DNA from: Bacillota bacterium
Lineage (GTDB): Bacteria; Bacillota; SHA-98; UBA4971
Assembly: GCA_012518595.1 (NCBI GenBank)
Contig: JAAYRV010000004.1
Location: 52,304 to 116,303, forward strand
DNA: 64,000 nucleotides
Direction: 5' to 3'
A model generated the notes under the pieces. The model searched no databases, was not told the origin of the DNA, and was given only the letters and a program-made list of their open reading frames with translations. Positions 4,895 through 46,008 of the stretch are shown in pieces (positions within the stretch are counted from its first letter, which is position 1; the number at the start of each line of letters is the position of its first letter). The translations under genes were made by a program, and so were the position numbers.

Positions 4895-5108
4895 AAAAAA
4901 AGGACCCTACCGTGTTCGATTTGACATCGGTAACTTTTGTTCCAACACCATTTGAAAGGGAGCCTCAGCTCCGAGTGCGGCGCGAGTGCCGTCCGGCGTG
5001 CGGAGTCGCAAAACACTTGGGAGGGCACCCACCTGCAGGGCGCAGGGATAGAAATGTTACCGGCCAGGCGGCATGGTGGGGTCGTGTTGTTCATTGAGCG
5101 GTTTTTTT
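4895..5108 (+). ncRNA. Candidate 6S RNA-like structured ncRNA (ssrS-like) downstream of aspS. The strand is not certain.
   Basis: About 215 nt of GC-rich non-coding sequence. A 12-bp terminal closing helix pairs 4903-4914 'gaccctaccgtg' with 5072-5083 'catggtggggtc' (including G-U pairs). A second internal helix pairs 4927-4934 'tcggtaac' with 5055-5062 'gttaccgg'. A T-run lies at 5102-5108. The only ORFs here are short and overlap on both strands. In Bacillus, 6S-1 RNA lies downstream of aspS (recalled). Confidence 0.4.
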
Positions 5109-8833: not shown

Positions 8834-9907
8834 ATGAGGCATCGTATGGATTTACCGGATATGAGATGTATCAGCCCTAAAACGCCGATACTTGTAGCAA
8901 TAAGCGGCGGCGTGGACAGTTCCGTCACTGCTTTACTCCTGAAATCCAAGGGGTTTCACGTAATCGGCGTTACCCTGAAAACGTGGGAGGGCTTTTCTTC
9001 AAAAGATGCCCGGGCTGTAGCGGATTCATTGGATATCCCCTATCACATATTTGATGTTTCAGACCGTTTCCAAAGTGAAATCGTCAGCTACTTGGTGGAC
9101 GAATATGTCCGGGGGCGGACGCCAAATCCGTGTGTCCGATGTAATGCCGAGATTAAGTTCCGTTACCTCCTTGACGCAAGGCACGAGGTTGGAGCCGAAT
9201 ATGTAGCTACAGGCCATTACGCCAGGATATCTATTGACCCTGCCACAGGCAGGTTCTTGCTGAAGAAAGGAAAGGATGACACAAAAGATCAATCATATGT
9301 GCTTTACCGCCTCACCCAACATGACCTTTCTTCCATACTCTTCCCATTAGGCGATCTTACCAAAGATCAAGTTCGAGAAGCTGCATCCAAGGCAGATATC
9401 CCTGTCGCAGGTAAAAGTGAAAGCCAAGAAATATGCTTCCTGGAAGGCACAGACTATCGTGAGTTTCTTTGTTCCTTACCGGGTTTTACAATTGAGCCGG
9501 GCCCGATCTTAGATAGTGACGGGAGGATCGTCGGCGAACACAGGGGATTGCCTTTTTATACAGTTGGCCAAAGAAAAGGCATTGGGATTCCGGGGAGCAA
9601 GAGACTATATGTGACAAAAATTGATGCATCCAGGAATGCAATTATTGTGGGTAAAGAAGAGGATCTGTTTTCCCGCGAACTTGAGGCTTGCGATGTGAAT
9701 TGGATTGCAAATCCGGATCCTCCTCGAAAAATGCATCTAGGTATCAAAATCCGCTACAATGCAAAAGAAGCGCCTGGCTTAGTTTTACCCAAGAGTCAAG
9801 ATATGGCGAAAGTCATTTTCGACAGGCCACAGAGAGCCGTAGCACCTGGACAATCCGCAGTATTCTACGACAACGACGTTATCATAGGAGGCGGAATCAT
9901 CGTCTAA
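8834..9907 (+). CDS. mnmA: tRNA-specific 2-thiouridylase MnmA
   Basis: PP-loop 'VAISGGVDSSV', catalytic Cys residues, 357 aa. Confidence 0.88.
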   Translation: MRHRMDLPDMRCISPKTPILVAISGGVDSSVTALLLKSKGFHVIGVTLKTWEGFSSKDARAVADSLDIPYHIFDVSDRFQSEIVSYLVDEYVRGRTPNPCVRCNAEIKFRYLLDARHEVGAEYVATGHYARISIDPATGRFLLKKGKDDTKDQSYVLYRLTQHDLSSILFPLGDLTKDQVREAASKADIPVAGKSESQEICFLEGTDYREFLCSLPGFTIEPGPILDSDGRIVGEHRGLPFYTVGQRKGIGIPGSKRLYVTKIDASRNAIIVGKEEDLFSRELEACDVNWIANPDPPRKMHLGIKIRYNAKEAPGLVLPKSQDMAKVIFDRPQRAVAPGQSAVFYDNDVIIGGGIIV

Positions 9908-9969
9908 TTTCTTGCCCGGTGGCAATACTAACTGTACTTTTAGACGCGAGTGCTCCGGAGGTGACTCTT

Positions 9970-10230
9970 GTGAATAGATTTTGGAAGACCGTGATTGCAG
10001 GGACTGCAGTAGGTGCCGTAATAGGCGTTTATCTATATGCCAAATCAAAAGAGGATCGTAAGAGACTCATGGCGGAAGACTCCCGGGCTCAGGAAATGGC
10101 AAGCAAAATGGCACTCCGAATCAGAAGGACCACCAATCGATTTGCAAACGAGATCGGGAAAGAAGTAGCGCGCGCAGGCCGAAGTATCAAGACACTGGGA
10201 AATCGCCTTAGCATGGGAGGAGTGGACTAG
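9970..10230 (+). CDS. Small YtxH-like membrane protein (DUF948-type)
   Basis: GTG start with GGAGGTG upstream. The N-terminus has one TM helix 'VIAGTAVGAVIGVYLY', followed by a charged helical tail. The ORF-track entry 9688..10230 runs back into mnmA and is not the real gene. Confidence 0.45.
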   Translation: MNRFWKTVIAGTAVGAVIGVYLYAKSKEDRKRLMAEDSRAQEMASKMALRIRRTTNRFANEIGKEVARAGRSIKTLGNRLSMGGVD

Positions 10231-34425: not shown

Positions 34426-34456
34426 GGGAGGACTTCACCACAAGATGGCGAATTTA
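34426..34456 (+). promoter_or_regulatory. Putative sigma-H type promoter for spo0A, with Spo0A-box-like elements upstream
   Basis: AGGA at 34429-34432, 17 nt, then GAAT at 34450-34453 within 'gcGAATtta'. TGNCGAA-like 0A boxes on the - strand at 34395-34404 (TGTCGTA) and 34413-34422 (TGCCGAA). Confidence 0.3.
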
Positions 34457-34516
34457 TACGGCGTCAGGGATGTCGGTGAGCTCTCTGACTTAAGGAGCAT
34501 TGATTGGGGTGGTATC

Positions 34517-35296
34517 ATGGGACAAGGCACGACACGTGTTCTGATAGTGGATGATAACCATGATTTGTGTGATGTCTTAATGCGATTCCTTAATTCACAG
34601 TCCGACATGTCAGTCGTTGGGGTGGCATATGACGGCATTGAGGCTCTCGGGAAGATATCAGATCTGGAACCTGATGTTGTAGTCCTTGACATTATCATGC
34701 CTCATTTAGACGGTGTAGGAGTGCTGGAGCGCCTTTCTGAACAGCACCTTAACCAACGACCCAGATTCGTGATCCTCACTGCGCTGGGCCAGGAGCGAAT
34801 AATACAGCAACTTACTGAAATGGGAGCTGACTACTACGTTGTAAAACCATTTGATATGCAAACACTGGTAGATAGGATACGCCAGGTGATGTCATCTCCG
34901 CAAATAATCAAGGGAAAGCAGATAGATTATTCGCCTCCCCCGAGAGACCTTCATTCTGAAGTGACAAGGCTTATTCACGACATGGGAATTCCAGCGAATA
35001 TCAGGGGGTACACGTATCTCAGAGAAGCAATAATCTTGGTAATAGGTGAACCTACGCTCTTAAACAGTGTCACAAAGGAGCTATATCCGCGTGTGGCTGA
35101 AACATTTGATACGACCGCAGCAAGAGTCGAACGGGCTATCAGACACGCCATAGAAATTGCTTGGACCAGAGGAAACATTGAGCTCCTAAACGGTTTATTT
35201 GGCTACACGGTCAGCAGTGAGAAGGGGAAACCGACAAACTCCGCCTTCATTGCAAGGATTGCAGACAAGATTCGCCTTGATATCAGAGCAAGCTAG
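34517..35296 (+). CDS. spo0A: Sporulation master regulator Spo0A
   Basis: Receiver domain 'RVLIVDDNHDLC' with the phospho-acceptor Asp in 'VVVLDIIMPHLDG'. The C-terminal Spo0A DNA-binding domain 'GIPANIRGYTYLREAI' matches the Spo0A-specific helix. GGGGTGG RBS before ATG 34517. Confidence 0.9.
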   Translation: MGQGTTRVLIVDDNHDLCDVLMRFLNSQSDMSVVGVAYDGIEALGKISDLEPDVVVLDIIMPHLDGVGVLERLSEQHLNQRPRFVILTALGQERIIQQLTEMGADYYVVKPFDMQTLVDRIRQVMSSPQIIKGKQIDYSPPPRDLHSEVTRLIHDMGIPANIRGYTYLREAIILVIGEPTLLNSVTKELYPRVAETFDTTAARVERAIRHAIEIAWTRGNIELLNGLFGYTVSSEKGKPTNSAFIARIADKIRLDIRAS

Positions 35297-35457
35297 GTTT
35301 GTGCCGTATAATACTTATAGATGTGCCCTCGGCCGGAGACCGACAGGGACATGCTGCGGAATGATAAAGTGTCAGGTAATACATACTACAAATAAGGAGA
35401 TAACTCGGAGGTAGCAGTGTAGTAAGGGCATCACCAGGGCCTTCAAAGGGTGACTTA

Positions 35458-36582
35458 ATGAAGGTCAAGGGCGTAGCAAGACTGGACAGAAGAACAAAAA
35501 ACCTCCTCTCCCGCATACGTCGAGGAGAAATTGTCATTTTGGATCACGAAGATATCGATGAGGTAGCCTGTGATGCGTTGATACGAATAGGGGTTCGAGG
35601 AGTCGTGAACGTCACTTCTTCCATTACAGGCAAATACTACAATCCCGGTCCGCTTAATCTATGCGATGCCGGGATTTATTTGTTGGATAGCGTAGGGCCA
35701 AACGTAATGGAACAGGTCAAAGATGGGGAGATTATCGAGATTTCCGGCAATACTCTCATGAAGAACGGAAGACCGGTTTGCCGGGGAACAATCGTAAGCA
35801 AAACCAAGGTGCTGGAGAGATTGAAGGAGGCGCGGTCATGCCTGGCTGACCGCGTTGACGCATTTGTCCTCAACACGATAGAACACGCGAAGCAGGAAAG
35901 ATCACTTATCTTAAGAGATACTGATTTTCCGCGTCTTCACACGAAAATTACAAAAAGACATGTCCTTGTTGCAGCAAGGGGACGGGGATACCAGGATGAT
36001 CTCAGGGCAATCATACCTTACATCTTTGAGATGAGGCCTGTTGTCATTGCCGTGGACGGAGCTGCAGATGCGCTCTTACGTTTAGGCATCTTACCGCATA
36101 TCATCGTAGGCGACATGGACAGTGCAAGCGATCGGGCGCTAAAATGTGGTTCTGAGCTTGTAGTCCATGTCTATCCTGACGGGCAATCCCCGGGAAGGGA
36201 GAGATTGAGGAAGCTGGGTCTTGAGGCAGTGGAATGCCGGATCCCGGGTCTCAGTGAAGACTTGGCGCTCTTACTTGCCTACGAAAAAGGCGCTGAACTC
36301 ATTGTGATCATAGGAAGCCATTCTTCAGTCGAAGATTTTCTGGACAAAGGACGCAATGGAATGGCAAGCACTTTTCTGACACGATTGAAAGTAGGGTCAG
36401 TCCTTGTTGACGCTAAGGGAGTAAGTAAGCTCTATAAAGGCAGCGCACACGGTAAGGACATCGCTAAGGTAGCCTTGGCCGGCCTTATTCCGCTCTCCAC
36501 AAGCGTAGCAGCCTCAACGACTATACGGCAGTTCCTGAGGCTTCTTATTATGCAGTTACGACTTTCCACATGGCCTGTTTGA
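35458..36582 (+). CDS. SteA-like protein (thiamine-pyrophosphokinase-like catalytic fold)
   Basis: N-terminus 'MKVKGVARLDRRTKNLLSRIRRGEIVILDHEDID' resembles the SteA family. 374 aa. Followed by an MctB/SteB-like gene. Confidence 0.6.
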   Translation: MKVKGVARLDRRTKNLLSRIRRGEIVILDHEDIDEVACDALIRIGVRGVVNVTSSITGKYYNPGPLNLCDAGIYLLDSVGPNVMEQVKDGEIIEISGNTLMKNGRPVCRGTIVSKTKVLERLKEARSCLADRVDAFVLNTIEHAKQERSLILRDTDFPRLHTKITKRHVLVAARGRGYQDDLRAIIPYIFEMRPVVIAVDGAADALLRLGILPHIIVGDMDSASDRALKCGSELVVHVYPDGQSPGRERLRKLGLEAVECRIPGLSEDLALLLAYEKGAELIVIIGSHSSVEDFLDKGRNGMASTFLTRLKVGSVLVDAKGVSKLYKGSAHGKDIAKVALAGLIPLSTSVAASTTIRQFLRLLIMQLRLSTWPV

Positions 36583-36613
36583 CGGAAAGCGCCATAAGGA
36601 GAACATATACCGG

Positions 36614-37462
36614 ATGATAAGTCTCAGATACCATATTACGTCAACAGTAGCGATATTCTTTGCGTTAGGTCTCGGGATCTTCCTGGGAAGCATCATAGTG
36701 AGAGACGACACCTTAGCAAGACATCAGCAATCACTCATTGACGGAATCGAGTCAGAATTTACCTTGATTCGAAAAGACCGCGAAGCCCTTTACGCAAGGC
36801 TCCTAGACGCCGAATCCTTGCTGGAAGACTCATTTGAGTTCGGAGAAATGGCTCTTACAAAGCTTGTTTGCGGCAAGCTGGACGGCAAACTCATAGCCTT
36901 GGTGGTTCCTGGGAAAGGACTATCCCATGATGAAGCGGCTGCCATAACGGCTGCGCTTCGAGAAGCAGGTGCATCAGTAAGCCGAATAGTCTATGTAACA
37001 AAGAGATTCGAACCCCTCACTTCTGAAGATACCAGGGAACTCGGTGCGCTCTATGAGCTTAGTAAGCCTTCTCCCAATGCGGTAGGAGAAAGACTCGCTA
37101 ATTCCGTCGCGTTGTTGGTCAGTCAAGAGGAAGCTTGCCATTTACCCGCAATTGATTCCCTCCTGCGTTCCGAATATCTTGAAATAGATCTTCTTGAGAC
37201 AGTGACTTCAAGATGCGATGCAGTAATAATAGCCGGAGGCAGCAGAGACCCGGCGCATGCGCCACTTTATACTGACATACCACTTATTAAGGCCTTTCAA
37301 AAACTGGGCATTCCTACTGTTATCGGGGAATCAAGAAATGTTGATTTCTCTTTTGCTTCTGAGTACCGTCGTTTCCGCATCCCCATAATAGAGCAGGTAG
37401 ATACCTTGATGGGACGCTTCTCCTTAATTGAGCAGCTGGCCTGTATCATGGACGGAGACTGA
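36614..37462 (+). CDS. MctB/SteB-like membrane-anchored protein (annotated in databases as 'copper transporter' family)
   Basis: N-terminal TM helix 'VAIFFALGLGIFLGSIIV' followed by a coiled segment and a large extracytoplasmic domain. It is paired with the SteA-like gene. Confidence 0.5.
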   Translation: MISLRYHITSTVAIFFALGLGIFLGSIIVRDDTLARHQQSLIDGIESEFTLIRKDREALYARLLDAESLLEDSFEFGEMALTKLVCGKLDGKLIALVVPGKGLSHDEAAAITAALREAGASVSRIVYVTKRFEPLTSEDTRELGALYELSKPSPNAVGERLANSVALLVSQEEACHLPAIDSLLRSEYLEIDLLETVTSRCDAVIIAGGSRDPAHAPLYTDIPLIKAFQKLGIPTVIGESRNVDFSFASEYRRFRIPIIEQVDTLMGRFSLIEQLACIMDGD

Positions 37463-37469
37463 AACGTTT

Positions 37470-38144
37470 ATGACCATCTCTGTGATTATCCCCGCGTACA
37501 ACGAAACCAAGAGAATAGCCTCCACAGTAAGGGCATCGATACTGTCATCATCTGAGATATGCGAGGTGATTGTTGTTGACGACTGTTCTTCAGATGATAC
37601 AGCTCAGCAAGGACGAGCTGCCGGCGCCGTAGTGCTTTCGATGCCACGCAGAGCGGGGAAGGGCGCTGCGCTAATGCAAGGGGCTTTGAAATGCCGAGGA
37701 GATATTGTAGTATTCCTCGATGCTGACATAGGCGAGACTGCGTTGGAGATTCCCAGGCTAATTGAACCTGTGGCATTTGACAAAGCTGACATGACCATCG
37801 CACGCTTTCCACAGCTTCCTCACATAAAAAAACAAGGCTTTGGCCTTGTAAAATGGGCAGCCTACCGAGGTGTAAAGCAGCTCTGTAAGCGCGAGCTAAG
37901 TGCAATTCTCTCAGGGCAGCGGGCTGCAAGGCGCTACACCTTCCTCAGGCTTATGCCTTTCGCGTCCGGTTTCGGAGTAGAAGTCGGTCTTACTATTGAT
38001 GCATTGCGCCTGGGTTTACGGATTCTCGAGGTGGACTGCAAAATGACGCACAGAGTCACAGGATGGAATTTAGCAGGATTTTCCCATAGGACACGTCAGT
38101 TCTACTGGGTTGCCAGGGCTATCGCTGAAAGATGTGTCAATTAA
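37470..38144 (+). CDS. Family 2 glycosyltransferase (polyprenol-phosphate sugar transferase-like)
   Basis: 'ISVIIPAYNE', 'VVDDCSSDDT', and the DxD motif 'FLDADI'. Confidence 0.75.
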   Translation: MTISVIIPAYNETKRIASTVRASILSSSEICEVIVVDDCSSDDTAQQGRAAGAVVLSMPRRAGKGAALMQGALKCRGDIVVFLDADIGETALEIPRLIEPVAFDKADMTIARFPQLPHIKKQGFGLVKWAAYRGVKQLCKRELSAILSGQRAARRYTFLRLMPFASGFGVEVGLTIDALRLGLRILEVDCKMTHRVTGWNLAGFSHRTRQFYWVARAIAERCVN

Positions 38145-38228
38145 GTAGGAGAGATTCACACGGATTTAGTAACATGCGGCATTCTCGCATTTCTGATTGC
38201 AGGATTTATCCGAAGGCCCGGCCGGAAA

Positions 38229-38999
38229 TTGCTGGTTCTTTCCGGACTGGTTCGATACAACTATGCAGGCAGGCAAATCCCGACTTCAACAGGGACAATC
38301 TTTGTCGTTTCCGCTTGTTTCGCTGTCCGGACTACCATGATCCTTTGCGGGCTTACTGACGAAAGAACACAACCGGTCCTCCCATACCTGTTACTGGCAG
38401 TTGGGTCATCACTTGCAGGTCTCATCGACGATATATACGGCTCGCATGTGGAAAGAGGCTTAGCCGGTCATCTAAAAGCCTTCATAGAACAGGGAAAGGT
38501 CACAACAGGGCTGTTTAAGGCTGTACTCATATGGTTTCTTGCTGCAGTCTCTGTCTCTGCTTCAGCAGATACGAAGCCTCTATCGGCTCTCGTCTCCGAT
38601 GCCACCTTAATAAGCCTTTCTGCAAACTTCATGAATCTCCTGGACTTACGTCCTGCACGGTCAGGAAAGGCTTTTCTTATAAGCTTCATGTTGCTCCTTG
38701 TAGGTGACTGTCGCTCATTTTCCCCATTGGTTCCTGCAGGGTTCGTCGGCGCTGTCCTGGCAGGGATTGGTGATGAGTTAAACGAGAAAAGTATGATGGG
38801 TGACGCAGGCGCAAATCCATTGGGAGCAGTACTCGGTTATTGGGTTGTGTTGCGCTCATCTCCCATTGTAAAGACGTCTGTGCTTCTACTGCTCATAGGT
38901 GTTCATATTTACTCAGAACGGCGCTCTCTTTCAATAACCATTGACGCAAACCCAGTCCTCCGTTTCATCGACCTCTTGGGACGCAGCCGAAAGTCATAA
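38229..38999 (+). CDS. MraY/WecA-like polyprenyl-phosphate sugar-phosphotransferase (GT4 family). The N-terminus is probably incomplete as given.
   Basis: 'GLIDDIYG' (DDxxG), 'NFMNLLDL' and 'MMGDAGANPLG' resemble MraY/WecA motifs. The frame is open from 38145 with TM-like 'CGILAFLIAGFI', but there is no ATG, GTG or TTG before 38229. Confidence 0.55.
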   Translation: MLVLSGLVRYNYAGRQIPTSTGTIFVVSACFAVRTTMILCGLTDERTQPVLPYLLLAVGSSLAGLIDDIYGSHVERGLAGHLKAFIEQGKVTTGLFKAVLIWFLAAVSVSASADTKPLSALVSDATLISLSANFMNLLDLRPARSGKAFLISFMLLLVGDCRSFSPLVPAGFVGAVLAGIGDELNEKSMMGDAGANPLGAVLGYWVVLRSSPIVKTSVLLLLIGVHIYSERRSLSITIDANPVLRFIDLLGRSRKS

Positions 39000-39064: not shown

Positions 39065-39928
39065 ATGAGATTCGGAGTGCACGTGAGCAAGGCAGGCGGC
39101 CTTAAGAGAGCGTTACAAGATGCTATCGACCTCGGGTGTGACACTATTCAAATGTTTGCCGGAAGCCCGAGAAGTCTTAGGCAGAGCGCCATCGATGAAG
39201 ATGAGGCTTATGCTTTTTTGCAAGGCCTTACCAAAGAAGACATACAACCACTTGTTATTCACGCCCCGTACCTTCTTAACCTTGCTTCGCCCAAGGATGA
39301 AACATATGAAGTATCGGTTCGGGCTCTTGCCCATGAAATTACCAGGTGCCAATCTCTTGGCGCGGACTATCTGGTGTTTCATCCCGGCAATCACCTGGGC
39401 TCAGGGATGGAAGCAGGGATTAAGAGAATTGCCGCCGCGATTAAGAAGGCATGCGACATGACGGAATTAACCCGCGACAATGGATTGACCCTCCTTCTTG
39501 AGATGGTTTCAGGCGCCGGAACTGAAGTCGGGTGGATGTTTGAGCATCAAAGAGACATAATGGGTATGGCGGAAGGCGCACCTCTTGGAATCTGTCTGGA
39601 CACATGTCACATGTTCGCAGCGGGCCATGATATAGCAACTCGAGAAGGACTTAGCGAAACCCTGGAGAAGGTCGACGAGATTCTGGGAATATCCTATGTA
39701 TCAGTTGCTCATTGCAATGATTCCGTGGGTGTTCTGGGATCCCGTCTTGATCGTCACGCGGATATCGGATCCGGCATGATAGGAGAAGAAGGATTCCGCG
39801 TTATCCTGGGAAACTCCAAGATTCGCGCGTTGCCCCTCATTCTGGAAACACCCAAGATCCGCATGGAAGATGACAAGCGGAACTTGGCTGCCATCAGGCG
39901 TCTGGCCAAAGAGGCGGTGATATGGTAA
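39065..39928 (+). CDS. nfo: Endonuclease IV (AP endonuclease Nfo)
   Basis: TIM-barrel AP-endonuclease-2 motifs 'HAPYLLNLAS', 'LVFHPG' and 'ICLDTCHMFAAGHD'. Confidence 0.88.
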   Translation: MRFGVHVSKAGGLKRALQDAIDLGCDTIQMFAGSPRSLRQSAIDEDEAYAFLQGLTKEDIQPLVIHAPYLLNLASPKDETYEVSVRALAHEITRCQSLGADYLVFHPGNHLGSGMEAGIKRIAAAIKKACDMTELTRDNGLTLLLEMVSGAGTEVGWMFEHQRDIMGMAEGAPLGICLDTCHMFAAGHDIATREGLSETLEKVDEILGISYVSVAHCNDSVGVLGSRLDRHADIGSGMIGEEGFRVILGNSKIRALPLILETPKIRMEDDKRNLAAIRRLAKEAVIW

Positions 39929-42103
39929 TTGACGGAGTTTAGAGAGGGTCAAATCCGAGATAAAATCCATGAAGTATTTGGGCCTTGCGGTCTTTTGTCA
40001 GAGGCACTGCCAGGATATGAGTTTCGCGAATCCCAACAGGAAATGGCTTTTGGGGTATTACGCAGTTTCCTAACATCCCGCCACGCCTTTATGGAAAGCG
40101 GCACAGGCACCGGTAAGTCCATTGCTTACCTTGTTCCTGCTATCCTATGGTCTTCTACCACCGGTAATAAGGTGGTCATATCCACGAATACCATCAACCT
40201 TCAAGAGCAGCTTATTCACAAAGATCTTCCTTCTCTTGTTGAATGTCTGGGAGTGGAATTTAAGTATTGCCTGGTCAAAGGGAGACCTAACTACGTCTGT
40301 CTTAGAAAGCTTGCCGTTGTTTCAAATGAGATGGAAGATGAGACTGATGACGCTTTCAGGTTGGCTTTTGCAGAGTTCATCAGTGAATTGGCTCATGTCC
40401 CAACAGGCACCAGGTCTGATTTTCATCTGGAAACGCCTGATGAGATCTGGGACCGCATCGCATCAGATTCCATGTCTTGTCTCAGGAGTCGATGTCCATG
40501 GAGTAAGAGGTGTTACTTTCTGAAAGCGCGCTCACAGATGGAGGATTCCGGTATTCTAGTTACAAACCACCATCTTCTGTTTTCTGACATCGCCCTACGA
40601 GCCGTAATGCCTGATAATTCCGGAAGTCGAGTCCTTCCGGAATATGAGTATCTCATCGTGGATGAGGCTCATAATATCCCTCCCGTAGCTGAAGAACATT
40701 TGGGATATAAGGCAGGCCTGGTAAATATACAAAGTGCCTGTAACGAGCTGGTTCATGTTGAGGGTTCCCGTCGCGGAAGAGGGGGTTTGCTGTTTAGTCT
40801 AAGAGCTATGATTTTTACTGCCACAGCTGAAGCCAGAGACAGTCTTATACAGAATATTGTGTCTTACATCGACTCTTCAATAGAGGCTACTCGGAGAAGC
40901 TATGAGGCGTCCACTTCGTTTTTTCAATCATTTGGCTGGTTTCTGAAGCACGTTTCAGCGCAATACAAGCGAGGCAGCAATGCAGTCAGGCTGAAGAAAG
41001 ATATCACGGAATCAATTGAATGGCAGGACGTAGTCATCCCAAGCGCAGAGAAGGCCATTATCAGAGGCCAAGAGTTGCTCTGGAATCTGAATCAGATCCT
41101 AGAACGCCTTGATATGCTTAAAGAGGATTCCGATATTGGTCTTAAGTCTTTAGAAGGGGACATTCAAGGCGTGGTAGGCAGACTGTCTTCAGAGATTACT
41201 GCTCTTAGCTTCGTTGTGTCCATGGAAGACAAGGAATTCGTCTACTGGAGCACAGGCTATCCTACTGATATTCAACTTATTGCAACACCGCTTAATGTAG
41301 CATCCGCCTTGCGTGAGCACTTATTTGACACGGTGGAATCAGTTGTCCTCACCTCGGCGACAATGACTGTAGGAGGGGATTTTCAATTCTTCAAACACCT
41401 GGTAGGGCTCGATGAGCAACTTGATCCTCCTCTAGAGTTCATCTTCGACTCGCCTTTTGACTTCCCGAACCAGGCCTTGCTCATAGTTCCTGAAGACTTG
41501 CCTGACCCACGGGATCCGTTATTTACAGTCGAAGCCGCAAGGCTAATCTCGGAAATTATTCAAGCGACACAAGGACGCGCATTTGTGCTCTTTACATCCT
41601 ATGCCATGCTTGACAAGGTTGAAGAGGTGATTCGACCGTCTTTGGAAGGCTTGGGAATTAAAGTGTTCAGACAAGGCTCAATGCCCCGCCACCGTATGCT
41701 CACGTGTTTTCGGGAGGAACCAGGGGCGCTCCTTGGAGCTGATAGTTTCTGGCAAGGAGTGGATGTCCCCGGTGATGCGCTTTCATGCGTAATCCTGGCG
41801 AGACTTCCTTTTCAAGTCCCTACTAACCCTGTTTATGAGGCAAGAATGGAGGCTTTTAAAACACAAGCTATCGATGGCTTTCGGTTTTATGCCCTCCCTT
41901 CAGCGGTAATCAGGTTCAGACAAGGCTTTGGACGCCTAATAAGAAGCAGTGAAGATCGAGGCGTTGTCGTAGTCCTTGACAATCGCTTAGTCCGGAAGTG
42001 GTACGGACGGGCTTTCTTATCATCCCTTCCCAGTGTGACTCTGGCTGTGGAAAGCAGCAACCAGGCAGTGGACTCAATTCGCAAATGGCTGGGCAACCAA
42101 TAA
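39929..42103 (+). CDS. DinG/Rad3-like ATP-dependent DNA helicase (DEAD_2 family), apparently without Fe-S Cys ligands
   Basis: Walker A 'ESGTGTGKS', DEAH 'IVDEAHNI', and a helicase C-terminal domain. Confidence 0.75.
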   Translation: MTEFREGQIRDKIHEVFGPCGLLSEALPGYEFRESQQEMAFGVLRSFLTSRHAFMESGTGTGKSIAYLVPAILWSSTTGNKVVISTNTINLQEQLIHKDLPSLVECLGVEFKYCLVKGRPNYVCLRKLAVVSNEMEDETDDAFRLAFAEFISELAHVPTGTRSDFHLETPDEIWDRIASDSMSCLRSRCPWSKRCYFLKARSQMEDSGILVTNHHLLFSDIALRAVMPDNSGSRVLPEYEYLIVDEAHNIPPVAEEHLGYKAGLVNIQSACNELVHVEGSRRGRGGLLFSLRAMIFTATAEARDSLIQNIVSYIDSSIEATRRSYEASTSFFQSFGWFLKHVSAQYKRGSNAVRLKKDITESIEWQDVVIPSAEKAIIRGQELLWNLNQILERLDMLKEDSDIGLKSLEGDIQGVVGRLSSEITALSFVVSMEDKEFVYWSTGYPTDIQLIATPLNVASALREHLFDTVESVVLTSATMTVGGDFQFFKHLVGLDEQLDPPLEFIFDSPFDFPNQALLIVPEDLPDPRDPLFTVEAARLISEIIQATQGRAFVLFTSYAMLDKVEEVIRPSLEGLGIKVFRQGSMPRHRMLTCFREEPGALLGADSFWQGVDVPGDALSCVILARLPFQVPTNPVYEARMEAFKTQAIDGFRFYALPSAVIRFRQGFGRLIRSSEDRGVVVVLDNRLVRKWYGRAFLSSLPSVTLAVESSNQAVDSIRKWLGNQ

Positions 42104-42223: not shown

Positions 42224-42682
42224 ATGAGAAACCGGAAAGCTTGTTTACTTCTAATCAGTTGTATCCTAGCCGTGCTTATGGTGTTATGTGTAGGCCTTTC
42301 AGGTACACAGAAGGACACAGCAAGCGCAGGGCAATCTGACTACGAACTACTTGCTCGGGTAATATCAGGTGAAGCTAGAGGCGAACCGTACATGGGTAAA
42401 GTCGCAGTCGGCGCTGTTGTCATGAATAGAGTGATAAGTCCTCAGTTTCCTTCGACTATCTCCGGCGTCATCTTTCAGGATTGGGCATTCACGTCAGTCT
42501 ACGATGGTCAAATAAACTATACGCCGGACCCTGATTCCTATAGAGCTGCCGGAGAGGCAATGTCAGGTCAGGACCCCACCTATGGCGCACTGTACTTCTA
42601 TAATCCCGCTCGCGTCACATCCTACTGGATTTTCACAAGGCCGGTCACGACTGTCATCGGAAGCCACTATTTTGCAAGGTAG
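42224..42682 (+). CDS. SleB/CwlJ-type cell-wall hydrolase (Hydrolase_2 domain), secreted
   Basis: Signal peptide and 'LLARVISGEARGEPYMGKVAVGAVVMNRV' (Hydrolase_2 signature). Confidence 0.7.
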   Translation: MRNRKACLLLISCILAVLMVLCVGLSGTQKDTASAGQSDYELLARVISGEARGEPYMGKVAVGAVVMNRVISPQFPSTISGVIFQDWAFTSVYDGQINYTPDPDSYRAAGEAMSGQDPTYGALYFYNPARVTSYWIFTRPVTTVIGSHYFAR

Positions 42683-42710
42683 CCAGGCACGCCCTGCCTG
42701 GCTACTTTAG
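42681..42710 (+). terminator. Probable intrinsic terminator
   Basis: Hairpin 'agccaggca-cgccc-tgcctggct' (42681-42703) followed by 'actttagtt'. Confidence 0.4.
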
Positions 42711-42759
42711 TTATCACATCTGCATGCCATCAGAGGATTCTGCATAAGTATTATGGGAA

Positions 42760-43608
42760 ATGCTCTCTTCGAGGAGGACTCCTCGGATGTTGATCGTTAT
42801 CGGACGGAACCGGAAGAGACTGGTTCTCATTCTTATAGCACTACTTGTTGTCATTGACACTTCCCAAATAGCATTATTAACAGCAGCGAAAGCAGTTATT
42901 GCCACTGTATCAGGGAGGCTTGTGCCTGTGTATTCCGTGTTTACACAAGACCGCAAGGTGAGCTTGACCTTTGAAAGCGAATCCGGGAAAGACATGACGC
43001 CGGAAATCCTGAAAGTCTTAAATGCGCACAATATTACCGCAAACTTCTTTCTGTCCGGAGAATGGATGGAGAAACATGGGGATTCTGTAAACGGCATTAT
43101 TGAAAGTGGCCATGAACTCGGCAACTACACCTACTCCGTTCCCCATCCCAACACCCTTCCTAAAGCTGAACTCAAACGGGAACTGGAGAAGGCTCATAAG
43201 TTGGTTGAGAAGGTGTCCGGTCAAGTGCCTAAGGTCTTTAGGCCGCCTTACGGTGAGTACAGTAACAAAGTCATAGAGGTCTCCAGAGAACTGGGTTACG
43301 AGACGGTGATATGGAGCATAGATTCACTGGACTGGCGCGGAACATCCCAGGATGACATGGAAAAGAGGATCCTCCGAAAGCTCCATAATGGTGCCATCAT
43401 CAGGTTTCATGTAACAGGACGCAACACGCCCGCGGCACTTTCGCAAATTATTCAGAATATCAAAGAAAACGGGTACGAAATAGTCCCCTTAAGTCAACTC
43501 TTACTCGAAGGCGATTACTACATACATCCTCATACAGGTGAAATGCGACCCATACAAATGCCTTCATCAGGCCAAGGCAAAAGGAGGGGTCTTTTAGATG
43601 AGACGTAA
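42760..43608 (+). CDS. Polysaccharide deacetylase, PdaB-like sporulation type (NodB domain)
   Basis: N-terminal TM helix, then a NodB-homology domain with 'HELGNYTYSVPHP' and a 'RPPYGEYS'-type motif. Confidence 0.7.
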   Translation: MLSSRRTPRMLIVIGRNRKRLVLILIALLVVIDTSQIALLTAAKAVIATVSGRLVPVYSVFTQDRKVSLTFESESGKDMTPEILKVLNAHNITANFFLSGEWMEKHGDSVNGIIESGHELGNYTYSVPHPNTLPKAELKRELEKAHKLVEKVSGQVPKVFRPPYGEYSNKVIEVSRELGYETVIWSIDSLDWRGTSQDDMEKRILRKLHNGAIIRFHVTGRNTPAALSQIIQNIKENGYEIVPLSQLLLEGDYYIHPHTGEMRPIQMPSSGQGKRRGLLDET

Positions 43609-44620
43609 AGACAAACTGGCTCCCAAACGTGCAGGACGTCTCACTGCAATTGTGATTACAAGAGACATGGCGCTCTTTATGGCGTTTGCCGTTTTAATCT
43701 TCGTATTTACGGTGACTCTTGTCTCGTCTCTTGATGATATCAGGCGGATGGTTTACGGCGTAAGGCCCGGAGTCACGTTGGAGACGCGGATAATTTCAGG
43801 ATATCTGCCAAAGGAGGTGAGACTGGTTGTGGAAGCCATGGCGGATCAAGAACGAACAGCCCCGAAAGACGCCATGCTTTACAAAGAGACAGGCGAGCTA
43901 ATACCGGAATCGCCGGGGCTCGATATTGACGTGGATTTGACTGTAGACCGCGCCATGAAAGCAAAGCCGGGAGGAAACGTAGAGTTAGTGCGAACTGTAA
44001 TCGCTCCGGCAATAACTAAGCGCCATTTTGATCCTCTATACCGTGTTAACACAGGAAGGCAAGCTATGGCAATCGCGGTTAACGTGGCCTGGGGCGAGGA
44101 TTGTCTTCCCAGGCTGCTTGATGCCCTCAGGGAACATAACATGAAAGTGACGTTTTTTATTGAGGGAGAATGGGCTGAGAAATTTCCTGACATGGTAATG
44201 CTTCTTAGCAAAGAAGGACACGAGCTGGCAAACCACGGATTTCAACATGTTCATGTGGAAAAAATGAGTGAACCCATGATTAGGCAACTTATTTCAGACA
44301 ACGAGAAACTCCTCATCAGCCTGGGAGTCAGGCCAAGCAGACTGTTTGCTCCGCCGTATGGCGAATGCAATCAGACAGTGGTTTCGGCGGCAGCGTCGCT
44401 GGGATATACGACAACGATGTGGACCATTGACACACTTGATTGGAAACTGGAAGATTCCGAGAAAGTCCTGGACAGAGTCGTGCCGAAAATCACGCCGGGC
44501 GCCATCATTTTAGCTCATCCAACTGAAGTTTTCCTCGAAGCTCTTCCAAAGATAGTGGACGCTTCAAGAAAGGCCGGCTATGGGTTCTTCACCATATCAG
44601 ACTTACTCGAATCCGAATAG
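43598..44620 (+). CDS. Polysaccharide deacetylase-family sporulation protein (YlxY-like, with an N-terminal extension)
   Basis: TM helix, an extra domain of about 120 aa, then NodB motifs 'HELANHGFQH' and 'FAPPYGE'. Its stop overlaps nothing, but its start overlaps the previous gene by 11 nt. Confidence 0.65.
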   Translation: MRRKDKLAPKRAGRLTAIVITRDMALFMAFAVLIFVFTVTLVSSLDDIRRMVYGVRPGVTLETRIISGYLPKEVRLVVEAMADQERTAPKDAMLYKETGELIPESPGLDIDVDLTVDRAMKAKPGGNVELVRTVIAPAITKRHFDPLYRVNTGRQAMAIAVNVAWGEDCLPRLLDALREHNMKVTFFIEGEWAEKFPDMVMLLSKEGHELANHGFQHVHVEKMSEPMIRQLISDNEKLLISLGVRPSRLFAPPYGECNQTVVSAAASLGYTTTMWTIDTLDWKLEDSEKVLDRVVPKITPGAIILAHPTEVFLEALPKIVDASRKAGYGFFTISDLLESE

Positions 44621-44625
44621 GATAG

Positions 44626-46008
44626 CTATCGCAAAGTATCAAGAATTGCTTCCCAGTATAGGCTGTCTTCATATCCCAGCTTCCAGATGGCTATACCTGC
44701 GATATCATATTTTTCCACCAACTCAAGCTTGGGCTTGAGACTGTGAGGAGATTCAAACCATACTTCGTGGGAAGCGCCATTTTCCATATACTTGAAGAAT
44801 GGGGATTTAGCCTCAGAATCCCAAGACGGGTCGATTCTCATGCGAGTCGCGCGGTTCATTGCCTGAGTATACGAAAGCGCTACCGTCCTTCCTGTAGAAA
44901 GATTCCAATCATAACCGTACGCAGGAACTCCCATTAGCACCTTGTTCCTTGGTACTTGGGTAATCGCATACTTGATTACTCTCTCCACCCACGGAAATGA
45001 AGCTACAGGTCCGGCTCCGCTGACGAGAGAGTGCTCATCATACGTCATTAGCATTATATAGTCACAGGATTTCCCCAAAGCATAGTAATCGAAGGCGCCA
45101 ACCCAGGATTGGCCTCGGTGGTCTTGAGTTTTGGCGGGCACGGACATAGTGACCAGATATCCACGGGGCTTCAGGCGGGCACGGAGCTCATTCATGAAAG
45201 CCGTAAGATTGTCGCGGTCTTTCGGATTCACGTTTTCAAGATCTATGTTAACCCCGTCGTAGCCTTGTTTCTCCAAAATCGCGAGGATATCCGAAACCGC
45301 CTTTGCCCTTGAGTTATAGCTTTGAAGCAACGCGTGTGCGCGTCTCTCATCAAATCCTCCCTGCACGAGGTTATGTACAAGAGCCAGAGTCTTGATATCT
45401 CCGGACTTTGCGACTTTCATAGCTCTTTCACTGGTGTCACCTGATACTCTTCCGTCTTTGTCCACCGGATGTAAGAAAATAGCTATACAGTCAAGAAAAT
45501 CTTTATTAGGCAGAAGAGACCCGTATGATGTTGGGTCACCATGGTAATCCTCTGTATAGTATCCGATTACTTTACGTTTTCCGGTTCTGATTTCCGGCGC
45601 TTGTTGGACGCGATTCGACGGAGACCGGCTTTTCGCTCCAGGATTCAAGCGAGACAGATCGCTGCCTTCAAGGAGGAAGTCGGCCATCCACCCGATGTGC
45701 CCATTGGAAAGCTTAACCTGATACCAATCGTCAAGTGAAGCAATAACAGTGACTTTGGCGCCGGAAGGCAATCTCTGTAAAGTCGGAAACTCCGTTCCAG
45801 GCCCCTTGCGAACCCTGGCGAGTTCCCTGACAGAGGCTTGAATGTGGTCTGTGGCAACAATAGGTTTCTTGCTGTCCATTTGCGTAGCAGCAGTCACCTC
45901 ATATGCGTCCACCGGCGAAGGAGTGACAACGTTCTCAGGTTTAGGATTATTTGCTGAAAAGACATACAGCAGAATAGTCAAGACTGTTGCGGCAATCTTT
46001 GGGTCCAA
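44626..46008 (-). CDS. Glycoside hydrolase family 18 (YaaH/YdhD-like spore peptidoglycan hydrolase) with an N-terminal SH3b domain
   Basis: Signal peptide. SH3b-like 'GAKVTVIASLDDWYQVKLSNGHIGWM'. GH18 catalytic 'DGVNIDLE' (DxxDxDxE). Confidence 0.7.
   Translation of the reverse strand: MDPKIAATVLTILLYVFSANNPKPENVVTPSPVDAYEVTAATQMDSKKPIVATDHIQASVRELARVRKGPGTEFPTLQRLPSGAKVTVIASLDDWYQVKLSNGHIGWMADFLLEGSDLSRLNPGAKSRSPSNRVQQAPEIRTGKRKVIGYYTEDYHGDPTSYGSLLPNKDFLDCIAIFLHPVDKDGRVSGDTSERAMKVAKSGDIKTLALVHNLVQGGFDERRAHALLQSYNSRAKAVSDILAILEKQGYDGVNIDLENVNPKDRDNLTAFMNELRARLKPRGYLVTMSVPAKTQDHRGQSWVGAFDYYALGKSCDYIMLMTYDEHSLVSGAGPVASFPWVERVIKYAITQVPRNKVLMGVPAYGYDWNLSTGRTVALSYTQAMNRATRMRIDPSWDSEAKSPFFKYMENGASHEVWFESPHSLKPKLELVEKYDIAGIAIWKLGYEDSLYWEAILDTLR

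Follow-up and report, generated by a model that had tools for sequence, protein, structure and literature searches.

Directly downstream of spo0A, in a 64,000-nt stretch of contig JAAYRV010000004.1 from a Bacillota bacterium (the window), lie four genes that encode homologues of the mycobacterial proteins SteA and SteB, a family 2 glycosyltransferase (GT2) and a compact membrane protein of the MraY/WecA fold, which we call G4. We lean towards reading these genes as one operon encoding an ancestral, fuller SteAB envelope system, in which the SteAB complex would work with a dedicated G4/GT2 pair in vegetative wall growth and cell separation, and in which the adjacency to spo0A would reflect old gene order. 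In the tuberculosis bacillus, SteAB has only recently come to be understood as a regulator of wall hydrolysis. The protein pair positions and activates a peptidoglycan hydrolase in Mycobacteriales, as known for Mycobacterium tuberculosis and Corynebacterium glutamicum (Lim et al. 2019, PMC6705760; Carloni et al. 2026, PMC12977500), and does so as a transmembrane complex that positions RipA (PMC12977500). Outside Mycobacteriales we find SteAB almost always accompanied by a PNPT-like enzyme and a glycosyltransferase, which hints at the type of molecule that SteA may bind or make.

A four-gene steAB module is conserved across phyla

The four open reading frames (ORFs) lie between spo0A (34445–35296) and nfo (39065–39928), all on the + strand (Table 1). 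An earlier reading of this DNA made without database searches (the sequence-only reading) had described four consecutive same-strand genes with short gaps, flanked by spoIVB and spo0A upstream and by nfo and a DinG/YoaA-like helicase gene downstream, and this description was confirmed. The gaps measure 31 nt between steA and steB and 7 nt between steB and GT2, and GT2 and G4 are parted by a single in-frame stop codon. GT2 most likely starts at ATG 37470, a codon preceded by GGAG at a distance of 9 nt and in agreement with public gene calls of 224 aa; it is this start that leaves the 7-nt gap after steB instead of an overlap. The steB gene has the Shine-Dalgarno sequence AAGGAGA. The arrangement recurs in four independent public assemblies of this species, with 8–12 single-nucleotide polymorphisms per 13 kb, so the four-gene observation is real.

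We scanned for G4 in one genome per species, and its signature motif confirmed at least 594 relatives in species-representative genomes, the best 80 of which were annotated with hidden Markov models (HMMs) made from the window proteins. Linkage was counted in those 68 loci, from Bacillota, Armatimonadota and Actinomycetota, whose upstream sequence extended over 3.6 kb or more. Directly upstream of G4 and on the same strand, steA was present in 67 of the 68 and steB as well in 65; GT2 lay between steB and G4 in 43, and spo0A stood upstream of the module in 31. A second scan, seeded with SteA, took the 80 metagenome loci nearest to the window protein, and G4 was present in 40 of the 45 that had enough downstream DNA, with steB-GT2-G4 complete in all 17 that had spo0A upstream. 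The four genes suggested as a module by the sequence-only reading are therefore linked elsewhere too. Median gaps across loci are 24 nt for steA-steB, 9.5 nt for steB-GT2 and 5.5 nt for GT2-G4, with many overlaps, compared with 215 nt for spo0A-steA, which argues for an operon running from steA to G4 with its own upstream region.

The link between GT2 and G4 can be closer still, as nine metagenome loci encode both in a single ORF. A database search with one such fusion returned many fusions of 466–606 aa, mostly from Armatimonadota, and Pfam recognises the GT2 and G4 domains together in these proteins. In the nine-locus fusions, the amphipathic C-terminal helix of GT2 leads directly into the ‘NYxGxxIP’ hairpin on the cytoplasmic side of G4, with helix 1 of G4 left out, a junction that makes the topology consistent with a cytoplasmic GT2 domain; an AlphaFold2 model of one fusion reached pLDDT 92 and pTM 0.73. 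No extra Pfam domains were found in the extended G4 proteins P0465, P0496 and P0499.

Solirubrobacterales and Actinomycetes have G4 without this GT2. In Brevibacterium and one Dermacoccaceae genome the order is tlyA-ppnK-recN-steA-steB-G4-MurJ-family flippase-GT-B-...-pyrG-NUDIX, with stops and starts overlapping, so that a flippase and a GT-B enzyme stand in place of GT2. This MurJ-like gene is also found after G4 in another 13 high-GC (metagenome) loci, and an inverted MurJ-like-GT2 pair lies beside steAB in two loci. In 58 of 84 loci from Bacillota and Actinomycetota (L016, L036, L042, L093, L169 and L172 among them), a same-strand DUF3866 gene lies no more than 5 kb downstream of G4; DUF3866 had no match in PDB or NCBIfam. 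In the window lineage, including the relative L167, nfo and the DinG-type helicase gene take the place of DUF3866-NUDIX-xerD after G4, and a search of the 64-kb window for recN, pyrG, NUDIX, xerD, DUF3866, a MurJ-like flippase and GT-B found none.

Two observations concern individual loci. In the Peptostreptococcaceae locus L169, a 203-aa gene between NUDIX and xerD (9488–10099), which recurs in 13 loci, has a weak, sub-threshold match to SpoIIM (TIGR02831, 29.6 bits, cut-off 100). L084, a contig labelled ‘MAG: Bifidobacterium breve’, bears steA and G4 and may be mis-binned; Bifidobacterium is described as having no SteAB (Carloni et al., PMC12977500).

SteA and SteB

The window SteA matches NCBIfam NF040608 over profile positions 1–367 of 369 (449.9 bits, cut-off 150), along with PF12555 (39.8 bits, cut-off 26.4) and the thiamine pyrophosphokinase (TPK) catalytic domain PF04263 (34.5 bits, cut-off 30.7). 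Its residues 5–327 match the solved SteA structures 9HMY (crystal structure of the M. tuberculosis protein, 233 bits) and 9HMZ (148 bits). The NF040608 and 9HMY scores bear out the SteA assignment of the sequence-only reading; the model named there for SteA, TIGR03725, is absent from the matches, NF040608 being the one that applies. Its SteB/MctB assignment stands as well, with the window protein matching PF11382 at 96 bits (cut-off 25.6) over residues 1–239. SteB has one hydrophobic segment (residues 6–31), and the family suggests that the remainder faces outwards; a search of solved structures with the window SteB sequence gave no match, M. tuberculosis SteB included.

Across 123 SteA proteins from G4-containing loci, residues D200, G201, G218, D219, M220, D221, S222, S266, D268, R299, G301 and S304 are 100% invariant. 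These residues lie in the motifs VDGxAD (VDGAAD in the window), GDMDS, SED and RxGMAST, the first three of which we take to resemble the metal and phosphate motifs of thiamine pyrophosphokinases, in agreement with the PF04263 match. In the corresponding positions M. tuberculosis SteA has VGTGAD, GDPDQ and SATD and C. glutamicum SteA has VDGAAD, GNPTG and SSTD, and both of these loci are without G4 and GT2. SteA from Brevibacterium and Dermacoccaceae, which belong to the same class as Mycobacteriales and bear G4, keeps the full motifs. With just two G4-less proteins in the comparison, both from Mycobacteriales, we regard the decay of SteA motifs with loss of G4 as a lead and not a result. The pattern suggests that G4-linked SteA may have a chemistry or ligand binding tied to the G4/GT2 product, and that the SteA of Mycobacteriales may be a reduced version. 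C. glutamicum SteA binds GDP- and UDP-containing ligands and not ATP, its true ligand being unknown (Carloni et al. 2026, PMC12977500).

Compared with the SteAB-RipA system of Mycobacteriales, the window module has the same steA-steB adjacency and the same predicted topology, with a C-terminal membrane segment in SteA and an N-terminal transmembrane helix in SteB, and its relatives have recN upstream as the mycobacterial loci do. It differs in that GT2 and a PNPT-like enzyme follow steAB, both of which the M. tuberculosis and C. glutamicum loci lack; in that SteA keeps the TPK-type motifs that are degenerate in M. tuberculosis (VGTGAD, GDPDQ) and C. glutamicum (GNPTG); and in that no RipA-like partner was identified in the window. 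A functional analogy has been drawn with FtsEX-hydrolase systems, in which a transmembrane complex with a cytoplasmic nucleotide-binding part likewise controls an extracytoplasmic wall hydrolase, although the folds are unrelated and SteAB has no ABC ATPase (comparison from PMC12977500). In one Actinomycetota metagenome-assembled genome (L005, 4472–5224), a 251-aa ORF between recN and steA has a borderline match to Peptidase_M23 (28.4 bits, cut-off 28.7) and could possibly be the SteAB hydrolase partner in that lineage.

G4 is a compact, divergent protein of the MraY fold

G4 alone gave nothing above threshold against Pfam, NCBIfam and PDB sequences. Its match to PF00953 covers profile positions 4–157 of 160 but scores only 14.2 bits (E=0.045), short of the cut-off of 27; many members of the family carry a precomputed PF00953 match, and one fusion protein scores 29.7 bits. 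A family profile of 18 homologues matched MraY structures in PDB with E=6e-8, aligning D90-D91 of G4 with D117-D118 of Aquifex MraY, N156/N159/D162 with N187/N190/D193, and D215 with D265. An AlphaFold2 model built from 78 sequences (pLDDT 95, pTM 0.92) has nine long helices and short C-terminal helices at the end, and its top 32 Foldseek matches in PDB are all MraY or human DPAGT1 (probability 1.00, TM-score 0.55–0.69), the next match having E=0.23. The MraY/WecA-like label of the sequence-only reading thus holds at the level of fold and superfamily, as indicated by the family profile and the structure model, and falls short at the PF00953 threshold.

The residues invariant in the 78 sequences are DD90-91, GH103-104, K120, N156/N159/D162, P165, R167 and GD215. 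Three aspartates, D117, D118 and D265 of the Aquifex enzyme, are essential in MraY, and since all three are invariant here, G4 is probably catalytic. The family has in common with the PNPT superfamily (MraY, WecA/TagO, DPAGT1) the fold, the DD, NxxNxxD and GDxG aspartates, and the cytoplasmic beta-hairpin after helix 1. It departs from it in the nucleotide loop, where ‘NxxNLLDLRPGR’ stands for the ‘NxxNxxDGxDG’ of PNPT enzymes, with an invariant second half L-R-P-G/A-R that puts P165 at the position of D196 in Aquifex MraY, as well as in the invariant GH and a conserved C-terminal tail, SE..S.S..I...P.L...D.LGR. MraY has 10–11 helices, compared with nine in G4, which has only about 275–279 aa; the HHH motif of MraY loop E is absent from G4, the profile alignment to MraY stops before loop E, and no NCBIfam model recognises the protein. 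Homologues of 250–290 aa occur in Clostridia, a few Bacilli, Armatimonadota and Actinomycetota. A HMMER scan of 1.84 billion cluster representatives (50% identity) returned 1,967 members at E≤1e-30 and only 6,244 matches at E≤1e-3, so the G4 profile is well separated from mainstream MraY and WecA. By its sequence, G4 clearly forms a distinct family, for which NCBIfam has no model.

GT2 is a short glycosyltransferase with an ambiguous acceptor

GT2 matches PF00535 at 84.5 bits (cut-off 23.3), in line with the family assigned by the sequence-only reading, and 21 homologues keep the DxD motif (D84-A-D86), SGQR, H194 and HR motifs invariant. It scores below every NCBIfam equivalog cut-off, the best being GpgS, AglJ and PpgS. 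Specifically, the scores and cut-offs are 81 and 325 bits for AglJ (TIGR04182), 48 and 370 for PpgS (NF058614), 28 and 375 for the dolichol-phosphate (Dol-P) hexose transferase (NF041391) and 49 and 529 for ArnC (NF007986), all models of polyprenyl-phosphate transferases, and 93 and 262 for glucosyl-3-phosphoglycerate synthase (NF010496). GT2 would at best be a functional counterpart of the polyprenyl-phosphate hexose transferases. The family profile scores 83 bits with M. tuberculosis GpgS structures (profile positions 3–188 only) and 78 bits with the Pyrococcus Dol-P-mannose synthase; with scores this close, the acceptor of GT2 is not assignable from sequence. Dol-P-mannose synthase, GtrB, ArnC, PpgS, AglJ and GpgS all have the GT-A fold, the DxD and an alignment of about 190 residues in common with GT2, and PpgS and the haloarchaeal Dol-P hexose transferases (profiles of 226 and 213 positions) are also similarly short. 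What distinguishes the window kind of GT2 from polyprenyl-phosphate enzymes of this group is that it alone is paired with, or fused to, a PNPT-like protein.

The module corresponds to an essential gene cluster of Clostridioides difficile

C. difficile Q18B80 (274 aa) belongs to the G4 family and shares 33% identity with the window protein. The genes on its contig run spo0A-steA(373)-steB(291)-GT2(230)-G4(274)-DUF3866(355)-NUDIX-x-xerD, matching in order and sizes the cluster CDR20291_1053-1057, annotated as a pyrophosphokinase of 373 aa, an exported protein of 291, a family 2 glycosyl transferase of 230, a glycosyl transferase family protein of 274 and a DUF3866 protein of 355 (J Bacteriol 2025, PMC12548448). 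Family membership together with this agreement identifies CDR20291_1053-1057 as the SteAB-GT2-G4 module; the C. difficile cluster differs from the window in continuing with DUF3866 and then NUDIX and xerD, where the window has nfo and the DinG-like helicase gene and no DUF3866 in 64 kb. All five genes are essential by transposon sequencing (Tn-seq), and CRISPR interference (CRISPRi) against them causes a strong viability defect, chaining and short, swollen, phase-bright cells, the phenotype class of teichoic-acid and rodA/pbp2 knock-downs in the same study, which lists the genes as of unknown function and does not mention SteA (PMC12548448). This phenotype class fits a role in envelope synthesis or cell separation in vegetative cells. 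The identification offers a testable hypothesis for essential envelope genes of a major pathogen, with G4 as a distinct, compact MraY-like target.

Adjacency to spo0A probably reflects an older gene order

The adjacency of steAB and spo0A in Clostridia has already been noted, with a sporulation role suggested (Carloni et al. 2026, mBio, PMC12977500). In our loci, recN lies directly upstream of steA in Peptostreptococcus canis, which has no spo0A nearby, in a low-GC metagenome locus and in actinobacterial loci, and in these recN-steA loci G4 is followed by pyrG or by DUF3866-NUDIX-xerD. Peptostreptococcaceae and C. difficile have the order recN-spoIVB-spo0A-(CCA enzyme)-steA-steB-GT2-G4-DUF3866-NUDIX-x-xerD. 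We take the M. tuberculosis order to be tlyA-ppnK-recN-steA-steB-pyrG-nudix-xerD, the same order that we saw directly in Brevibacterium, and Bacillus subtilis keeps recN-spoIVB-spo0A but is not known to have steAB. Because recN adjoins steA where spoIVB-spo0A is absent, the simplest reading is that spoIVB-spo0A was inserted into an older recN-steA block and that the adjacency to spo0A is inherited gene order. We therefore caution against taking this adjacency as a sign of a sporulation function.

In most Firmicute relatives, steA is preceded at 40–80 nt by an extended -10 box of sigma-A-like type (TGnTATAAT). The spo0A-steA spacer of the window contains no sigma-70 promoter or terminator beyond chance expectation; a perfect TATAAT at 35307–35312 was rejected as a promoter, as it is not kept in L167. 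The sole block of the distal spacer that the window shares with L167, whose G4 is 60% identical, is GAATG-N18-CATACTA, a putative promoter element that resembles the forespore sigma-G/F type and stands in a spacer that otherwise does not align. A strict sigma-G-like pattern is found in 3 of about 60 Firmicute regions upstream of steA (the window, L041 and L064), and such a box was thus rejected as a general feature of steA. A search for a riboswitch or structured leader of the module gave no Rfam match and a fold z-score of only -1.7.

A proposed mechanism and its alternatives

By analogy to the proteins of M. tuberculosis and C. glutamicum, SteA would be a membrane-tethered, cytoplasmic TPK-like nucleotide-binding protein and SteB an N-terminally anchored extracytoplasmic protein, and the two would form a transmembrane complex that positions and activates a peptidoglycan hydrolase. 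G4 is predicted to be a nine-helix polyprenyl-phosphate phosphotransferase of the MraY/WecA type that keeps the three catalytic aspartates and has a remodelled nucleotide loop (NxxNLLDLRPGR). GT2, which lacks transmembrane helices, would dock on G4, and the pair would most likely assemble a sugar or disaccharide linked to polyprenyl-(pyro)phosphate on the inner face of the membrane. Judging from the Actinomycete variants with a MurJ-type flippase in the operon, the product may be exported in the window organism by a flippase encoded elsewhere, and we speculate that it is then used at, or sensed by, the SteAB complex, with the whole module serving vegetative wall growth and cell separation. Genomic context supports this mechanism in part, and we infer its chemistry. 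A polyprenyl-linked saccharide is typically made and exported by a PNPT enzyme working with a glycosyltransferase and a MOP flippase, and the presence of this set in the Actinomycete operons is the strongest argument for a lipid-linked glycan pathway. The suggestion of the sequence-only reading that a lipid-linked glycan priming and transfer pair is coupled to SteAB remains the best account, to which the GT2-G4 fusions and the MurJ-flippase variants add strength. By analogy, the wall-polymer linkage-unit pairs WecA+WbbL of mycobacteria and TagO+TagA of Firmicutes likewise combine a PNPT enzyme with a cytoplasmic glycosyltransferase, and the Actinomycete variants of the module add a MOP/MurJ-type flippase; the homology is at superfamily level only, and the module has no polymerase or LCP ligase and is tied to SteAB and not to a polymer gene cluster.

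Several points weigh against this reading. The GT2 sequence is as near to the soluble glucosyl-3-phosphoglycerate synthase as to polyprenyl-phosphate transferases. G4 is without the DGxDG half of the nucleotide loop, without helix 10 and without the MraY HHH loop, and could use a non-standard donor or be inactive; in this species it also has no canonical start codon ahead of its conserved helix 1. A flippase, a ligase, DUF3866 and a candidate hydrolase partner are all missing from the window. Gene order is also weaker evidence than usual, since the operon belongs to a larger conserved block of functionally unrelated genes (recN...xerD). The C. difficile CRISPRi and Tn-seq results are subject to polarity, so that essentiality is not assignable to single genes, and the sigma-G/F-like box leaves room for additional sporulation expression in the window lineage.

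The missing parts of G4 (the DGxDG loop, the HHH loop and helix 10) lend themselves to a different reading, in which G4 is not a transferase but a membrane anchor and polyprenyl-phosphate-presenting subunit, and GT2 alone makes a polyprenyl-monophosphate sugar as the donor for extracytoplasmic glycosylation, much as we take PpgS to work with Rv3632, DPM1 with DPM3 and Ppm1 D2 with D1. It would account for the GT2-G4 fusions of many organisms and for the near full-length, below-cut-off matches of the transmembrane-less GT2 to PpgS, AglJ and the haloarchaeal Dol-P hexose transferase. The three PNPT catalytic aspartates, K120, N156, N159 and D162 are, however, invariant in 78 sequences, which is hard to square with a pure scaffold, and Solirubrobacterales and Actinomycetes have G4 where this GT2 is absent; we consider this reading unlikely. 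That GT2 and G4 are functionally uncoupled passengers of an unrelated glycan pathway, frozen into the tlyA-ppnK-recN-...-pyrG-nudix-xerD block, would be in keeping with how that block holds unrelated genes together across phyla. Yet recN, pyrG and xerD are near-universal, while G4 occurs almost only right behind steAB (67 of 68 loci), with overlaps or gaps of a few nucleotides, and M. tuberculosis and C. glutamicum, which lack G4 and GT2, have decayed versions of SteA motifs that are invariant elsewhere. The single phenotype of the C. difficile cluster points the same way within the limits set by polarity (PMC12548448), and we judge the passenger explanation very improbable.

The sequence-only reading and Carloni et al. 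(PMC12977500) had suggested a sporulation device, and placed at the asymmetric septum, in engulfment, the germ-cell wall or the cortex, a glycoconjugate made under sporulation sigma factors would explain why the module directly follows spoIVB-spo0A in 31 of 68 genome loci and in 17 metagenome loci, why the window and L167 have in common a GAATG-N18-CATACTA block that fits the sigma-G consensus, and why cortex-type genes (a SleB-like hydrolase and deacetylases) are found a few kb downstream. The adjacency is, however, accounted for by an insertion of spoIVB-spo0A into recN-steA, and the same gene order without a nearby spo0A in Peptostreptococcus canis, and in Armatimonadota, Solirubrobacterales, Brevibacterium and Dermacoccaceae, argues against such a role, as do the sigma-A-like extended -10 boxes at most Firmicute loci. 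The C. difficile orthologues are essential in vegetative growth (PMC12548448), and the tags CD1215-CD1219, which we assume to be their strain 630 equivalents, are not named in the main text of a study of the C. difficile sporulation sigma regulons (PMC3789822). We hold the sporulation role to be improbable. Two further statements of the sequence-only reading have been overtaken by the literature: SteA is no longer characterised only in Corynebacterium, as structures of the M. tuberculosis SteAB-RipA system are available (PMC12977500), and the module is not without functional description in spore-formers, given the reported spo0A adjacency (PMC12977500) and the C. difficile knock-down phenotype (PMC12548448).

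Returning to the ancestral SteAB system as we prefer to read it, a bolder version would have SteA act as an enzyme in an essential membrane pathway complete in itself. Together with the PNPT-like protein and the glycosyltransferase, SteA would make an undescribed polyprenyl-linked compound, and once this had been flipped SteB would use or read it to license wall hydrolysis or growth; the SteAB-RipA system of Mycobacteriales would then be a reduced derivative that retains ligand binding only. This version draws on the TPK-type (pyrophosphokinase-like) signature present in all 123 G4-linked SteA proteins and decayed in M. tuberculosis and C. glutamicum, and we put it forward as a doubtful extension. 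In it, the arginine-rich ‘DLRPGR’ loop of G4 may bind a non-uridine or pyrophosphate-type donor.

Earlier publications already cover SteAB function, the adjacency to spo0A and the finding that the C. difficile cluster is essential. Our literature search returned no description of a SteAB-glycosyltransferase link or account of DUF3866 beyond PMC12977500 and PMC12548448, and in it we did not find described the PNPT-like and glycosyltransferase partners of SteAB outside Mycobacteriales, their fusions, the flippase variants, a SteAB assignment of the C. difficile cluster or the SteA motif correlation.

The start of G4

The conserved helix 1 of G4 (VGEIHTDLVTCGILAFLIAGFIRRPGRK, 38145–38228) lies between the GT2 stop codon TAA (38142–38144, same frame) and TTG 38229, the first canonical start of G4, which has no Shine-Dalgarno sequence. 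A strong TAGGAGAG is located at 38146–38153 and followed by ATT 38154, ACG 38160 and TTA 38166, with no ATG, GTG or TTG before 38229. Relative L167 has TTG at the position of TTA 38166 and L168 has an ATG overlapping the GT2 stop. The start region is identical in three of the four independent assemblies, and public gene calls start G4 at ATG 38337 (220 aa), losing the conserved NYxGxxIP motif. Possible explanations are near-cognate initiation, read-through of the TAA to give a GT2 fusion, or a protein without helix 1, the last being plausible because the natural GT2-G4 fusions of the nine metagenome loci lack this helix. An in-frame GT2-G4 fusion in relative P0002 was ruled out by stop codons upstream in the translated contigs.

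Neighbouring features of the window

Downstream of nfo, the DinG-type helicase gene (39929–42103) matches YoaA NF053712 at 552 bits, below the cut-off of 680, and also matches DinG models minus their exonuclease part. The wall-modifying cluster that follows (Table 1) looks like spore-cortex maintenance and germination functions.

Table 1. Coordinates of the module, its sequence signals and related or neighbouring features (window numbering unless a locus is named)
Feature	Position	Strand	Description
steA	35458–36582	+	374 aa; cytoplasmic TPK-like domain and SteA-like C-terminal (membrane) segment
steB (MctB family)	36614–37462	+	282 aa; N-terminal transmembrane helix and extracytoplasmic domain
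GT2	37470–38144 (ORF also open from 37428)	+	GT-A fold family 2 glycosyltransferase; 224 aa, no transmembrane helix, amphipathic C-terminal helix
G4	38145–38999	+	Compact divergent PNPT (MraY/WecA/DPAGT1 fold) membrane protein; ~279 aa; first canonical start TTG 38229
Shine-Dalgarno TAGGAGAG of G4	38146–38153	+	Read from sequence; kept in relative L167
Promoter-like GAATG-N18-CATACTA	35359–35388	+	spo0A-steA spacer; conserved between window and L167
MurJ-family flippase and GT-B	L173 6867–9823; L174 6810–9580		In place of GT2 after G4 (Actinomycete variant)
SleB/CwlJ-type Hydrolase_2	42224–42682		Wall-modifying cluster a few kb downstream (cluster 42224–46008)
Two polysaccharide deacetylases	~42787–43608 and ~43598–44620		Wall-modifying cluster
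SH3 and GH18 protein	~44626–46008	-	Wall-modifying cluster

The only Rfam family above threshold in the window is 6S (SsrS) RNA, matched by RF00013 at full length at 4901–5086 on the + strand (68.2 bits).

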